Source: a virus
Lineage: Duplodnaviria > Heunggongvirae > Uroviricota > Caudoviricetes
Virus record (IMG/VR): IMGVR_UViG_2740892258_000009
Length of the DNA: 4,742 nt
Strand: one strand, 5' to 3'
Shown here: in pieces, positions 1-4,074 of the stretch
Layout of the letters: each line of letters opens with the position of its first letter
Numbering within the stretch: position 1 is the first letter of the stretch
The notes under the pieces: model-generated
Seen by the model: the letters and a program-made list of their open reading frames with translations, nothing else
Databases searched by the model: none
What the model was told of the DNA's origin: nothing
Made by a program: the position numbers and the translations under genes

Positions 1-325
1 ATGGATTGGGTTATGAGCCCGTCGTCCGGTGATGCTCTTCTCTGTTTTGCAAAAAAGGACGGTACCAGCCGGAAGCAAGGGTACAAACTGGTACCGCCAG
101 GACTACACACAGCATAAAGTTGTGGTGCCGGGTGCCTCCCGGTGCCTGGCGAAGGTTGCACACCAGGCGGGTGGGTATCCACAGAAGGTCGACTGTCAGC
201 CTCAACCTTAACCCGCGTGCGCTGAGCCGCATTCACCACAACGCTAAGGATTCTCTCTGGTTGAAAATACTTAGCTGTTATGTGCCTGCTTTTAGCCACA
301 TCAGGCGAGGTGGACCTGGTTATTC

Positions 326-369
326 CCCAACAACAAGGATTCGGTTAATCTGGATATCCCCAACAACAA
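326..369 (+). repeat. Two direct copies of CCCCAACAACAA, 32 bp apart, 40-80 bp upstream of the 408 start
   Basis: CCCCAACAACAA at 326..337 and 358..369, read directly. Function as a regulator-binding site is inference. Confidence 0.5.
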
Positions 370-407
370 TAAGAGTATTCAATGTGATCGCTGAATTAAC
401 GGCAGCA

Positions 408-899
408 ATGACGGCTATTCGTGAAACAGCCCAGATTGCAAAACTAATGAACGAGGCAAAAACTCAAGCTGAAGTAAATGCGGCTATTGGTGAGCTGAAC
501 TCAAAGCTTGCGTCTATTCAGCGCGAATGCGTGTCTCTCGTTGAACTGGTGGGCTCTTATCAAGAAATAAATGCTTCTCTCAAAGCTAAAATTGCAGAAT
601 TCGAAAACTTTGAGGCTCAGACGGAAGGCTATATCCTTAACCAACTTGAGTCGGGTACTTTTGTATACTCGAAGGAGGTAATCGTGAACGGTGGCAGCAT
701 AACCATGCATCTTTGCCCAAAATGTTTTGGACAAAAGATAGTATCGATACTTCAACCATTCCCGGTTAGCGAAGATGAGCTTTTTCATAAAAGCAGGTGC
801 CTCCACTGTGAAAATAAGTTTCTGATGAATAAAAATCCGGATTACGTATCGCCTCCATCCATTGAGGAGTTGTCCAGAAAACTTAACGGCAATCTGTAG
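408..899 (+). CDS. Hypothetical protein, 163 aa: N-terminal coiled-coil-like helical region plus C-terminal C4 zinc ribbon (CPKC-x24-CLHC)
   Basis: The ORF-track frame 120..899 is protein-like only from the ATG at 408 (MTAIRETAQIAKLMNEAKTQAEV...); the 96 codons upstream are Arg/Ser/Pro-rich junk. An alternative GTG start at 384 follows a weak AAGAG. Heptad-like A/L/I/E/K-rich N-terminus. Stop TAG at 897..899 is followed by a hairpin plus T-run terminator. Confidence 0.6.
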   Translation: MTAIRETAQIAKLMNEAKTQAEVNAAIGELNSKLASIQRECVSLVELVGSYQEINASLKAKIAEFENFEAQTEGYILNQLESGTFVYSKEVIVNGGSITMHLCPKCFGQKIVSILQPFPVSEDELFHKSRCLHCENKFLMNKNPDYVSPPSIEELSRKLNGNL

Positions 900-938
900 A
901 TTACTACTGTTGTGGATATCCAGATTGTTAAAGAGCTA

Positions 939-961
939 AGCGTCCTGTAGGGCGCTTTTTT
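939..961 (+). terminator. Rho-independent terminator of the 408..899 gene
   Basis: Stem AGCGTCC (939..945), loop TGTA, stem GGGCGCT (950..956, one G-U pair), then a T-run to 961, starting 40 nt after the stop codon. Confidence 0.6.
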
Positions 962-1069
962 GTTGCTAACGAATCATCCGGTCATTCATACGCCACCGGC
1001 GGCTACTTCGTGGGCGTCCTGCCTGTCCGTGATAGCTTACATTATGTTGCTACTTAAAGTAGCAAAAAT

Positions 1070-1098
1070 CAACAACAAAAAGTAGATATTTGTTGTTG
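1070..1098. repeat. 10-bp perfect inverted repeat CAACAACAAA-N9-TTTGTTGTTG; possible operator or weak AU-rich leftward terminator
   Basis: Arms at 1070..1079 and 1089..1098. On the minus-strand RNA the hairpin is followed by AUUUUUG. It shares the CAACAACAA motif with 326..369. Confidence 0.5.
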
Positions 1099-1117
1099 TC
1101 TATGATTTTTCTATAAT
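1090..1117 (+). promoter_or_regulatory. Candidate sigma70 promoter: -35 TTGTTG (1090..1095), 16-bp spacer, consensus -10 TATAAT (1112..1117)
   Basis: Perfect TATAAT hexamer in an AT-rich tract; the -35 is weak (3/6) and overlaps the right arm of the 1070..1098 inverted repeat. There is no sizeable downstream ORF, so any transcript would be a small or antisense RNA. Confidence 0.3.
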
Positions 1118-1256
1118 TAATTGAAAGTTAAATGTTTTTGCTGATTTACTATGCTGTAAACTGAAAATATCGCACGAAGTTGGAGTAGGTATTGAGCATA
1201 GTGAATTATGAGGAGGGAGTTTTTTATGAGATTAATCAGGGAGAAAGAAGAGTAAA

Positions 1257-1276
1257 GCCCGGTTATGCGGCCGGGC
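1257..1276 (-). terminator. Probable Rho-independent terminator of the ParA-like gene (leftward transcript)
   Basis: GC-only 6-bp stem GCCCGG/CCGGGC with an 8-nt loop, 8 nt past the stop at 1284..1286. On the minus-strand RNA it is followed by the U/C-rich UUUACUCUUCUUU (interrupted U-tract). Confidence 0.5.
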
Positions 1277-1283
1277 ACATGCA

Positions 1284-2360
1284 TTACTTTGTAAGTTCTA
1301 GAACTCGTTGAGCCAGCCCTTTAAATTGTTCGTTAAAGGCGTCTCTGCTTGATTTCATTGTATTTAAGGCATGCCCAAATTGCCCTGAATCGCGAATTTG
1401 CTGATCACTGATGGAGAAAACAGGTGTCGCTAGTTGTTGGCTTATTGCGATTAATGAGTTGAAATCGGAAATATGCGCAAGATCATAGGCTGATAAATCT
1501 CCACTGACTGTTGTTTTGTTAATTGCATGTTGCACTTTATCTCGTGGAATTATGCAGGTAATTTTTTCTAGATTTGGCACTAAGATCGAATCAACAGCAT
1601 CACGGATAGCTGCCATCCATTTTTCGAAAGATTTTACAGGTGCTCCTTTACGCGGCCTGTATCTCTGCTGAATCATACCTAGAAACTGCGGTGCATTTTT
1701 AATTGATTGTGAAGAGTTACCATCATTATTTTCTTTAAATAATGCTAATTCTTTGTGCCAGCGAGGTATATTTTTTGAGAGAGAGCGAATTGCTTGCCAG
1801 CAAAAAAAGTCTGGAGCTACAGGTACGATAAAATAGTCACTTGACATGAGAACTACTTCATTTAAACCTCCAACATTAGGGCTGAGATCATAAAGAATGT
1901 AATCAATATTATTCTTCATGGCGATTAGCTGTAATATTTTTGGCAGGTTCCCTGGTATATTTCTTGTAGCAGGAATACCAGCAGCAATTTTTAGAGAAAC
2001 ACTTATCTGTGAATCTAAGTCCGAAACATCTAAATGTCCGGGAAGAAGCAGAAGGTTTTCATGCAGTGTAGGGTGTAATTTTCCCGTTTCTTTTTCAAGG
2101 TATGCTTCAGGTTGTCCGCCATTAATCAAATATTCTACAATAGGTCCAAGAGTTAAGTTATCTCTGCTAGAATAAAAAGAATCTAAACCCTCATCAATCT
2201 TTTCATAGCCAAGAACCATTCCTGTTAGATTACATTGCGAATCAAGGTCAACCATCAATACTTTCTTGCCTTCATCCGCAAGTGCCCATCCAAGATTGAA
2301 GGTTGTTGTGGTTTTACTTACCCCACCTTTATGATTAAAAAAACAAATTGATTTTGTCAT
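1284..2360 (-). CDS. ParA/MinD/Soj-family deviant Walker-A P-loop ATPase with ~110-aa C-terminal extension, 358 aa; orphan (no ParB in window)
   Basis: Walker A at residues 9-18 (NHKGGVSKTT, the KGGxxK[ST] signature), DLDSQ-type A-prime motif (VLMVDLDSQCN) and a hydrophobic-Asp Walker B (IDYILYDLSP). ATG at 2360 with AAAGGA 9 nt upstream. The gene looks AT-richer than the replication gene by eye (not computed). Confidence 0.85.
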   Translation of the reverse strand: MTKSICFFNHKGGVSKTTTTFNLGWALADEGKKVLMVDLDSQCNLTGMVLGYEKIDEGLDSFYSSRDNLTLGPIVEYLINGGQPEAYLEKETGKLHPTLHENLLLLPGHLDVSDLDSQISVSLKIAAGIPATRNIPGNLPKILQLIAMKNNIDYILYDLSPNVGGLNEVVLMSSDYFIVPVAPDFFCWQAIRSLSKNIPRWHKELALFKENNDGNSSQSIKNAPQFLGMIQQRYRPRKGAPVKSFEKWMAAIRDAVDSILVPNLEKITCIIPRDKVQHAINKTTVSGDLSAYDLAHISDFNSLIAISQQLATPVFSISDQQIRDSGQFGHALNTMKSSRDAFNEQFKGLAQRVLELTK

Positions 2361-2461
2361 ATTTCTCTATCCTTTCGACCCCCAGCATATTGTAATTTAC
2401 GCTGGGTGATTATTTTATATTGTTAATGATAATGTTTAATAAAAATAAGAGAGTAAAACAA

Positions 2462-2474
2462 CTATTAGTAATAG
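2462..2474. promoter_or_regulatory. Operator-like 13-bp palindrome CTATTAgTAATAG in the cI/ParA-like spacer
   Basis: Perfect dyad apart from the centre base; same CTATT-N5-TAG architecture as the two 13-mers between cI and cro. Lies ~100 bp upstream of the ParA-like ATG in a 170-bp AT-rich spacer. Confidence 0.3.
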
Positions 2475-2530
2475 CACTTGCTTGATAAATATTATTTTTT
2501 CACCTTTAGTTCTATAGTCTAAACGAAGAA

Positions 2531-3292
2531 CTAAAGCCGGTTGTATTTAATTGATTCGTGTATCAATGCTTTGCCCATAACATAAAGTTGATCTTGGGAC
2601 TTCTCATCAATGTACCATTTCTCATAGGCTGGATTATCCGAAAGAACGGCGAGTTTGTTGCCTTGCATTTGTAGACGTTTAACGTGGAACGTCTTACCAT
2701 AAACGAAAGAGTAAACACCATCAGTTTGGAAGTTGCGAACAGAAATGTCGACAAACAGTCGATCTCCGGAAACTAGAGTAGGGGACATGCTGTCGCCATT
2801 TACAGTCATAACTTTAATATCATCTTGAGAACGATTACCGAAAAGAGAACGGGCATGCTCTGTTGTGAACTCAATGGCGTAGAGCACATCAACATAGTCT
2901 GAAAGCATATAGGTTCCAGGTCCTGCGCTAACGCTAAGATCCAAAACTTCTATCCTGTATACATCGGGTTTTGTTGGATTGGGGATGCTTGCCATTTCCT
3001 TACATCCTTCTCTCTCGCCAACACCATATTCTAAATATGAAGCTGATACCCCCAGAGCCAATGCAAGTTTATTCATGACAGAGGCACGAGGCTTCGCAGC
3101 GCCGATTGTGTATCGCCGCGCCATTTCATATGTAACGCCCACAAGACTTTTGAGTTGGGTGACAGAAATTCCCTTGTTTGTCATTAGCTCGTTTAGTCTC
3201 TTGGCGAAATCTGGATACTTCTGTTCTTCTACCATAGGTAGAAGGTTACTCGCATCACATACGCTAGTCATTTCTATTTTAAGTAGTTGCAT
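2531..3292 (-). CDS. CI-type phage repressor: N-terminal HTH plus C-terminal S24 (LexA-like) autopeptidase
   Basis: HTH segment GISVTQLKSLVGVTYEMARRYTIG; Ala-Gly cleavage dipeptide in LSVSAGPG (residues 123-124 of the 253-aa frame); catalytic Ser in VNGDSMSPT and Lys in FHVKRL, 36 residues apart. Start is uncertain: ATG at 3292, 3271 or 3235 (253, 246 or 234 aa), and the 13-mer at 3274..3286 favours 3271 or 3235. No SD before any of them, consistent with a leaderless transcript as for lambda cI. Confidence 0.9.
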   Translation of the reverse strand: MQLLKIEMTSVCDASNLLPMVEEQKYPDFAKRLNELMTNKGISVTQLKSLVGVTYEMARRYTIGAAKPRASVMNKLALALGVSASYLEYGVGEREGCKEMASIPNPTKPDVYRIEVLDLSVSAGPGTYMLSDYVDVLYAIEFTTEHARSLFGNRSQDDIKVMTVNGDSMSPTLVSGDRLFVDISVRNFQTDGVYSFVYGKTFHVKRLQMQGNKLAVLSDNPAYEKWYIDEKSQDQLYVMGKALIHESIKYNRL

Positions 3293-3333
3293 TCTGCTAT
3301 TTTAAGTAGCATCATCCCTCTGAATTTCAGAGG
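3274..3333. promoter_or_regulatory. Divergent cI/cro control region: two 13-bp direct repeats CTATTTTAAGTAG (3274..3286, 3297..3309) and a 17-bp palindrome CCTCTGAA-t-TTCAGAGG (3317..3333)
   Basis: The 13-mers are 23 bp apart and each is an imperfect dyad (CTA.TT.AA.TAG). Their reverse complements contain TAAAAT, a -10-like hexamer placed to start a leaderless cI message at the 3271 ATG. The 17-bp palindrome overlaps the cro SD (GGAG at 3331..3334). Confidence 0.5.
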
Positions 3334-3341
3334 AGAAAGGT

Positions 3342-3605
3342 ATGTCATCTCAAAACTACACAGAGAAAGCAGTAAAAGCTGCGGGAAAATCTTTATCTGA
3401 AGTAGCCCGTCACTTTGGTTTTAAGTCCACTCAATCCGTCGCTAATTGGGTAATTAACAATCAAGTCCCGTCAGAACGGGTTTTACAACTTTGTGAGTTG
3501 GGAAACTGGTCCGTGACCCCTCATGAACTGCGTCCTGATATTTACCCCAATCCAAATGATGGATTACCTGAGTGCTATTCAAAAGTTAGCGGTTCAGCTG
3601 CGTAA
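3342..3605 (+). CDS. Cro-like early repressor, YdaS-type Cro/CI-family HTH protein, 87 aa
   Basis: Divergent from cI, GGAG SD 7 nt upstream. Motifs typical of YdaS-like prophage Cro proteins (AVKAAGKSLSEVARHFGFKSTQSVANWV... LRPDIYP). Stop TAA at 3603..3605. Confidence 0.85.
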   Translation: MSSQNYTEKAVKAAGKSLSEVARHFGFKSTQSVANWVINNQVPSERVLQLCELGNWSVTPHELRPDIYPNPNDGLPECYSKVSGSAA

Positions 3606-3633
3606 ACGTAACCACAGAAACGAGGAGTTAACC

Positions 3634-4032
3634 GTGGGTAAGCATCACTGGAAAATAGAAAAACAGCCTGAGTGGTACGTGAAAGCTGTCAGAAAAACTA
3701 TCGCAGCGTTGCCGGGGGGTTACGCTGAAGCTGCTGACTGGCTGGACGTAACAGAGAACGCATTATTTAACCGCCTTCGTGCCGATGGCGATCAGATTTT
3801 CCCGCTGGGATGGGCAATGGTTTTACAGCGTGCTGGTGGTACCTCTCAATTTCGAAGCTGCAGGAGCATGCAGCACTGGTCTACAAAATCTTTTGTGTTT
3901 CAGAAAGTAATGACGCCCGCGAGTGTGCAGCTCCGGGCGTCGTGGCGTCGATTGCTTCTGGTTGTGGAGAAACTAACGCATGAACAGTTTAACAACACAC
4001 TACCGTCGCTCGCAACTGTGTGGAGAAACTAA
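3634..4032 (+). CDS. cII-position early regulator, as present truncated by a frameshifting 56-bp tandem duplication (probable pseudogene or altered C-terminus)
   Basis: GTG at 3634 follows a strong SD GAGGAG (3622..3627, 6-nt spacer), in the frame of track ORF 3523..4032. ATGs at 3523 and 3556/3559 overlap cro and lack an SD. The frame stops at TAA 4030..4032 inside copy 2 of the duplication. Assignment to a CII/YdaT-like family rests on gene position plus a loose resemblance and is unverified. Confidence 0.55.
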   Translation: MGKHHWKIEKQPEWYVKAVRKTIAALPGGYAEAADWLDVTENALFNRLRADGDQIFPLGWAMVLQRAGGTSQFRSCRSMQHWSTKSFVFQKVMTPASVQLRASWRRLLLVVEKLTHEQFNNTLPSLATVWRN

Positions 4033-4074
4033 CGCATGAACAGTTTAACAACACACTACCGTCGCTCGCAACTG
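3963..4074 (+). repeat. Perfect 56-bp direct tandem duplication (3963..4018 = 4019..4074)
   Basis: Base-by-base identity of TGTGGAGAAACTAACGCATGAACAGTTTAACAACACACTACCGTCGCTCGCAACTG in two adjacent copies; flanking bases differ. 56 is not a multiple of 3. Confidence 0.95.

Follow-up and report, generated by a model that had tools for sequence, protein, structure and literature searches.

The window, i.e., the whole stretch of 4742 nt analysed here, corresponds (99.9% match) to an Escherichia coli prophage at the tRNA-Arg gene argU, flanked on the chromosome by folD and ybcJ; its hosts are E. coli IHE3034, APEC O18, and about 100 other complete genomes. The left end of the window is occupied, on the minus strand, by the promoter-proximal end of a leftward early operon (yfdP, yfdQ, yfdR, etc.). 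To the right of this operon end lies the gene considered in this study, hereinafter the rip1-like gene (positions 384–899, plus strand), which is antisense to the operon and situated at its start. As was noticed in the first-pass annotation, a ParA-family gene on the minus strand (1284–2360) converges tail-to-tail on the rip1-like gene. It is followed by a gene for an S24/HTH cI-type repressor (2531–3292, minus strand) and a YdaS/Cro-type gene (3342–3605, plus strand), and then by ymfL, a DUF4222 gene, and an O-like replication gene.

Two regions of the window show peculiarities of their own. Positions 1–239 are labelled in RefSeq as a frameshifted pseudogene (hypothetical), and the minus strand of positions 49–272 yields a full-length match to the Rfam family STnc100, a gammaproteobacterial sRNA, with 40.3 bits and E = 5.5e-7, which is below the gathering score of 47; a weak DicF-like match is seen on the same strand at 57–111. 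Positions 49–272 may be a non-coding leader or an sRNA region of the leftward operon. In ymfL, 207 nt are missing relative to IHE3034, PhiR29_1, and strain 190 (window region 3839–4074), and 56 nt are duplicated in tandem (3963–4018 being identical to 4019–4074); the loss and the duplication together truncate the YmfL reading frame, and they could reflect variation between strains, an error in the assembly, or an edit.

The rip1-like gene is an uninterrupted ORF with a TAG stop codon at 897–899. The frame read earlier from ATG 408 (163 aa) is real, whereas its start codon was misplaced: translation most likely starts at GTG 384, yielding a protein of 171 aa, as favoured by the conserved N-terminus, the aligned starts, and RefSeq. 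Indeed, the N-terminal residues MIAELSAAM are retained in the alignment of homologues from many genera; at the aligned start position, most loci have GTG, and the remainder have ATG or TTG (the latter in one species). The Shine–Dalgarno sequence AAGAG (371–375), located 9 nt upstream of GTG 384, is conserved among the loci, the RefSeq start is also at window position 384 (WP_000559922.1, 171 aa), and ATG 408 is the codon for the nearly invariant Met9. The conserved weak start fits a potentially lethal protein being translated at a low basal level. A longer product with an upstream in-frame extension (from TTG 120, as in the 243-aa annotation of PhiR29_1) was rejected due to stop codons in this region in the homologues from Klebsiella phage Kp4882-1 and phage 689R2.

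Homologous genes are found in diverse surroundings, and in every context inspected the gene is oriented opposite to the phage genes bordering it on one side or both. For example, in HK446, HK620, and HK630 it lies inside the pL operon in the antisense orientation; in DMS3, between the gene for the small terminase subunit and that for the large one; in Arsenophonus, between the lysis and terminase genes; and in Citrobacter, Enterobacter, O157:H7, and other E. coli, its neighbours are various repressors or genes for integrase/excisionase. The slot between the genes for the small and the large terminase is the one where Rip1 and Tab were described (PMC10884400; PMC13434031), and it carries antisense, self-promoted defence genes (PMC10884400). 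Such genomic contexts support the assignment of the gene as a putative prophage-expressed exclusion gene.

Relation to the ParA-like gene and the immunity module

The convergent arrangement in the window allows for an explanation in which the ParA-like ATPase has the rip1-like protein as its partner, regulator, or adaptor, the two genes forming a single system. This was the possibility put forward in the first-pass annotation, along with a fallback to an independent accessory gene. Besides the tail-to-tail orientation itself, it is favoured by the fact that approximately 105 out of 109 E. coli genomes with this ParA allele feature the whole arrangement of the window. The identity among these ParA copies is, however, no lower than 99%, indicative of a single recent lineage, and the co-occurrence of the two genes beyond this lineage is low. 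The rip1-like gene is present in 650 out of 5426 complete E. coli genomes (about 12%), where it is annotated as "hypothetical protein", and the ParA allele, in at most 109 of these 650, so that at least 83% of the carriers lack it. Among the IMG/VR loci with enough downstream DNA, ParA adjoins the rip1-like gene in one out of 79, and it was found within 3 kb of the gene in none of the 16 loci from other species. Moreover, in phages PhiR29_1 and PhiR49_1 an identical rip1-like protein is encoded immediately adjacent to cI, with no ParA there, and, conversely, Salmonella phage ST160 encodes a ParA homologue (60% identity) downstream of c2 and a DUF3024 gene, Rip1 being absent from its vicinity.

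The structure of the prophage also separates the two genes. Comparison of the window with its heteroimmune relatives (PhiR29_1 and E. coli strain 190) reveals homology from position 1 to approximately 1026–1030 and again from approximately 3609, and the intervening immunity module (about 1027–3608) includes the ParA, cI, and cro genes. Its beginning is marked by a palindrome, TTGCTACTTAAAGTAGCAA, at 1047–1065. As it has TTAAGTAGC in common with the two cI–cro sites (at 3279 and 3302), we consider it an OL-like operator, and hence ParA resides between cI and OL, that is, in the position of rexAB in phage lambda. By this comparison, the rip1-like gene is outside the immunity module and ParA is inside it, the homology break at about 1027 falling between the two genes, at the OL-like operator. 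Next to the palindrome, the inverted repeat CAACAACAA-N11-TTGTTGTTG (1070–1098) encloses a further AAGTAG half-site. Positions 1047–1110 probably represent the OL/pL region; no consensus promoter was found there.

Taking these observations into account, we consider a two-gene system with ParA very unlikely. According to the distribution and the homology boundaries, the rip1-like and ParA genes are independent cargo, converging by chance in one prophage lineage, and the fallback reading, an independent accessory gene, is borne out. The ParA-like gene encodes a solitary ParA/AAA_31 ATPase of 358 aa with a long C-terminal extension; no ParB was seen, and the prophage is integrated. It also yields a weak, P-loop-only PADLOC match to the candidate system PDC-M28B, and may itself be an accessory or defence gene expressed during lysogeny.

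Similarity of the protein to Rip1

In order to identify the family of the rip1-like protein, its sequence, a family profile, and a structural model were compared with available collections. Among PHROGs, the protein belongs to phrog_1244 (E = 2e-58), a family whose function is listed as unknown. The profile built from 24 homologues matches chain L of PDB entry 9oox, "ring interacting pore 1 (Rip1)", with E = 4.3e-27 over positions 4–152 out of 168, and this chain is the sole strong match in the profile search of PDB sequences; the single sequence also matches Rip1 of this entry (E = 2.7e-7). The entry is the cryo-EM structure of Rip1 from Escherichia phage HK446 bound to the small terminase of T6.

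The structural comparison yields the same assignment. The AlphaFold model based on 22 homologues (pLDDT 87.7) features helices at residues 2–24 and 28–79 (numbered as in the protein of 171 aa) and, after them, a beta-rich domain, and the two long helices agree with the helical N-terminus noted from the sequence at the outset. Foldseek searches of PDB with this model retrieve only two significant matches, 9oox_L and 9oox_M (probability 1.0, 28% identity); for 9oox_M, E = 7.8e-7 and the TM score normalised by target length is 0.73 over 120 columns, while the next match has E = 0.055. The first helix is amphipathic (moment 0.44) and the protein has no transmembrane segment, similarly to HK446 Rip1 and unlike lambda SieB.

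An exhaustive profile search (E ≤ 1e-3) yielded 2290 cluster representatives, nearly all of them single-domain proteins of 145–180 aa. In a diverse alignment of 40 members, including HK446 Rip1, HK620 HkaP, and DMS3-25 from Pseudomonas, four cysteines and the leucine of the ILQ motif are invariant in all 40 sequences, and two tyrosines and the isoleucine and glutamine are nearly so; the window protein keeps all the family-invariant residues. The cysteines are those of the CPKC-x24-CLHC pattern that had been singled out by eye as a ribbon (C111, C114, C139, and C142); they are located in the C-terminal beta domain and are predicted to form a zinc ribbon. Taken together, the profile, fold, and residue data identify the protein as very probably a divergent member of the Rip1 family. 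No meaningful match was obtained for the protein in Pfam, NCBIfam, and PADLOC v2 (2023), with weak coiled-coil noise only; as PADLOC v2, NCBIfam, and Pfam contain no model of this family, there is no independent curated assignment.

The layout of the ribbon had also been likened to Lar-type proteins, and one could suggest that the protein is a Lar-like restriction-alleviation protein or another small zinc-ribbon anti-restriction protein. The CxxC...CxxC ribbon and the early-left position, where ral/lar genes occur (e.g., ral of lambda), agree with this suggestion. On the other hand, no Lar family was retrieved from Pfam at E ≤ 1, the fold and PDB sequence searches both lead to Rip1 alone, and ral has the orientation of the early operon, to which the rip1-like gene runs antisense. 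Hence the resemblance to Lar is not supported, and an anti-restriction function of this kind seems extremely unlikely, the assignment to the Rip1 family being retained below.

Regulatory elements around the gene

The region immediately upstream of the rip1-like gene (285–383, plus strand) contains a sieB-type promoter and leader conserved in more than 20 loci from many genera. Approximately 100 nt upstream of the gene are strongly conserved even where the encoded proteins share merely 25–30% identity. This block is homologous to the region upstream of sieB in lambda and coincides with the annotated sieB promoter (29690–29720) and RNA start site (29727) of P22 (NC_002371). Given this homology to P22 and lambda, the rip1-like gene occupies the classic exclusion-gene slot. 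Since the SieB and Rip1 proteins are unrelated and the upstream block is common to their genes, unrelated exclusion proteins are found behind one promoter cassette, and, judging from the upstream homology, exclusion genes appear to be exchangeable on a single regulatory cassette.

Alignment to P22 places the predicted −10 box, TAATCT, at 345–350 and the predicted transcript start at about 357; the first of two CCCCAACA repeats (325–332) falls in the predicted −35 region, and the second one (358–365), at +1. The promoter was located solely through this homology: a simple scan for sigma-70 promoters in window positions 1–1400 revealed no consensus promoter, and the predicted −35 box is poor. Further upstream (285–313, approximately −72 to −44 relative to the predicted transcript start), there is an inverted repeat, GCCTG-N12-CAGGC, with GGTGG. 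In this element, GCCTG-N12-CAGGC overlaps CCAC-N12-GTGG, and it is nearly invariant across genera and common to the sieB loci; it may be an activator or operator site. Comparison of the upstream repeats by hand with the motifs of sigma-32, sigma-E, sigma-54, CRP, LexA, and CII produced nothing convincing.

A structured RNA of the riboswitch or pseudoknot type was considered for the upstream block and rejected, the folding z-scores against shuffled sequences being +1.27 and +0.85 for the two strands. In addition, RNAalifold applied to 21 upstream sequences yielded −0.45 kcal/mol with three pairs only, and no Rfam family matched the block. Due to this lack of a signal for RNA structure, we prefer the reading of the block as a promoter and operator region.

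The gene is surrounded by several repeats. The sequence CAACAACAA is over-represented, with four copies in the window versus 0.07 expected by chance. It had been described earlier as flanking the gene, and in this respect the description needs correction: the copies at 328 and 361 belong to the promoter and leader of the rip1-like gene, while the other two, at 1070 (plus strand) and 1090 (minus strand), are in the neighbouring immunity module, around the operator-like site. What does flank the ORF is a 26-nt inverted repeat with 85% complementarity between its arms (347–372 and 901–926). The left arm overlaps the predicted −10 box, the transcript start, and the leader, and the right arm directly follows the stop codon; each of them holds a perfect TGGATATCCA palindrome. 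The repeat is kept in the enterobacterial subfamily and absent from the copies in HK446, HK620, and Arsenophonus.

Downstream of the gene, a block composed of GGATATCCAGATT, GTTAAAGAGC, a hairpin, and a T run is conserved across genera. The hairpin is an intrinsic terminator on the plus strand (938–957) with an 8-bp stem and a T run, its loop varying in other genera. As the T–G wobble of the hairpin would be an A–C mismatch on the other strand, RNA of the plus strand is favoured, i.e., this is the gene's own terminator, as the first-pass annotation had proposed. The copy in O157:H7 shares with the window only positions 276–936 (93.6% identity), that is, the promoter block, the ORF, and both arms of the inverted repeat; the terminator is not included.

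On the opposite strand, which is that of the leftward early transcript, positions 925–936 contain GCTCTTTAACAA, which agrees perfectly with the rrn-type boxA consensus. Other genera retain this site next to the gene. The scan of the window produced this one exact match, while in shuffled sequences, with one mismatch allowed, the mean number of matches was 0.06, and at least one match occurred in 11 out of 200 shuffles. The boxA lies directly after the complement of the rip1-like terminator hairpin. On the leftward early transcript, which would then run antisense through the gene, its place would be close to the 5′ end, and it may act in antitermination of the left operon as a site for Nus factors.

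In P22, sieB is controlled by the cis-antisense RNA sas (PMC12197685, PMC7067206). By analogy with sieB/sas/esc of P22, the non-coding elements of the window might form a self-immunity switch that silences Rip1 when the resident prophage enters the lytic cycle. The proposed elements of the switch are the sieB-type promoter with the upstream inverted repeat, the 26-nt repeat with TGGATATCCA, and the boxA on the antisense early transcript. We regard this suggestion as tentative and rather doubtful; if true, SieB and Rip1, although unrelated, would be interchangeable on a common regulatory cassette.

Proposed function and comparison with known exclusion systems

The primary description of Rip1 (Patel et al., Nature 651:1060, 2026) is summarised in a review (PMC13434031). 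According to the latter, Rip1 alone is non-toxic, and escape mutations map to the portal gene in Pseudomonas phages and to the small terminase gene in E. coli phages. In the cryo-EM structure, an 11-mer ring of the small terminase is surrounded by 12 Rip1 subunits, with the N-terminal amphipathic helices forming the pore and the C-terminal half touching the ring; dye leaks from liposomes treated with the complex, which also perforates cells and thereby causes premature lysis (PMC13434031). Relatives of Rip1 are common in proteobacterial prophages (PMC13434031). Other papers that mention Rip1 agree with this account.

By analogy with the characterised Rip1 proteins, the gene in the window is likely a single-protein, pore-forming abortive-infection defence set off by oligomeric assembly proteins of the invader. 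In the lysogen, its product would be synthesised at a low level from its own sieB-type promoter as a harmless soluble protein. The trigger would come when a superinfecting phage reaches the stage of late gene expression: the C-terminal zinc-ribbon domain would bind the ring-shaped oligomers of the phage's small terminase or portal. The bound ring would then template a ring of Rip1, and the N-terminal amphipathic helices would enter the inner membrane as a pore, so that the cell would die before completion of the progeny. The protein would act independently of the ParA-like ATPase from the neighbouring immunity module. For the window protein, we infer the expression in the lysogen, the trigger, the pore formation, and the defence phenotype; what the analysis itself shows is the homology and the shared fold, the presence of the invariant residues, the location in a prophage, the antisense orientation, an own terminator, and a promoter region homologous to an annotated sieB promoter and RNA start site.

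As the identity to HK446 Rip1 is approximately 28%, the specificity for the trigger, and even the activity, may differ. This low identity also agrees with another explanation, that the protein is a Rip1 homologue with a shifted role, sensing a different oligomeric phage or plasmid protein or controlling the timing of assembly or lysis of its own prophage. The subfamily of the window gene has a C-terminal tail of its own and flanking elements, the inverted repeat and the boxA, not found at the HK446 and HK620 genes, which could reflect such a shift. Nevertheless, all family-invariant residues are kept, the promoter type and the antisense moron placement are those of exclusion genes, and the wide spread over heteroimmune prophages is as expected of defence cargo. 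Therefore, we consider a shifted role improbable and retain the defence function as the preferred reading.

The assignment to Rip1 gives a protein annotated as hypothetical a testable function, namely, abortive infection at a late stage through pore formation, with terminase or portal rings as the trigger. It is relevant to phage host range and to phage therapy in pathogenic lineages, e.g., ExPEC IHE3034, APEC O18, and O157:H7. The presence of a Rip1 gene on the sieB promoter cassette ties a new defence to a classical exclusion locus, and suggests that other antisense genes behind the sieB-type promoter block are defence candidates worth screening.

Four known systems may be compared with the gene in the window. 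Tab, the tail assembly blocker of Pseudomonas phage JBD26, resides in the same antisense terminase slot as the Rip1 homologue DMS3-25 and, like Rip1, is a late-acting single-protein prophage defence (PMC10884400). However, it is an unrelated protein of 83 aa that blocks tail assembly and forms no pore, and it has a dedicated anti-Tab partner (PMC10884400).

SieB of lambda and P22 has in common with the rip1-like gene the slot, the orientation, and the homologous promoter and leader, and presumably also the logic of prophage-expressed abortive exclusion. The proteins themselves differ: BLASTP comparison of the window protein with SieB yielded only a 39-residue segment with 28% identity (E = 0.004 for the single comparison), and SieB contains a hydrophobic membrane segment that the window protein lacks (maximum 19-residue hydropathy 1.73 vs. 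0.85). In P22, SieB is regulated by the cis-antisense sas RNA and Esc.

HkaP of HK620 and HK630, annotated as "putative superinfection exclusion protein", belongs to the same family as the window protein (29% identity), and its gene is antisense in the pL operon and preceded by the same upstream block. It is located between N/hkaQ and cIII, without the flanking inverted repeat. The protein is uncharacterised, and the literature search on hkaP produced unrelated matches only.

The closest comparison is with the characterised Rip1 proteins from HK446 (PDB:9oox) and from Pseudomonas casadabanviruses. The HK446 gene lacks the 26-nt inverted repeat and the boxA/terminator block of the window, its product shares approximately 28% identity with the window protein, and the window gene is positioned differently, next to the immunity region of a CPS-53/KplE1-like argU prophage, where the leftward operon starts. 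Despite these differences, the upstream promoter block is common to the two genes, and the window protein is similar to the characterised Rip1 proteins in full-length homology, fold, the four cysteines, the ILQ motif, size (about 150–175 aa), the amphipathic N-terminal helices, the location in a prophage, and the orientation antisense to the operon.
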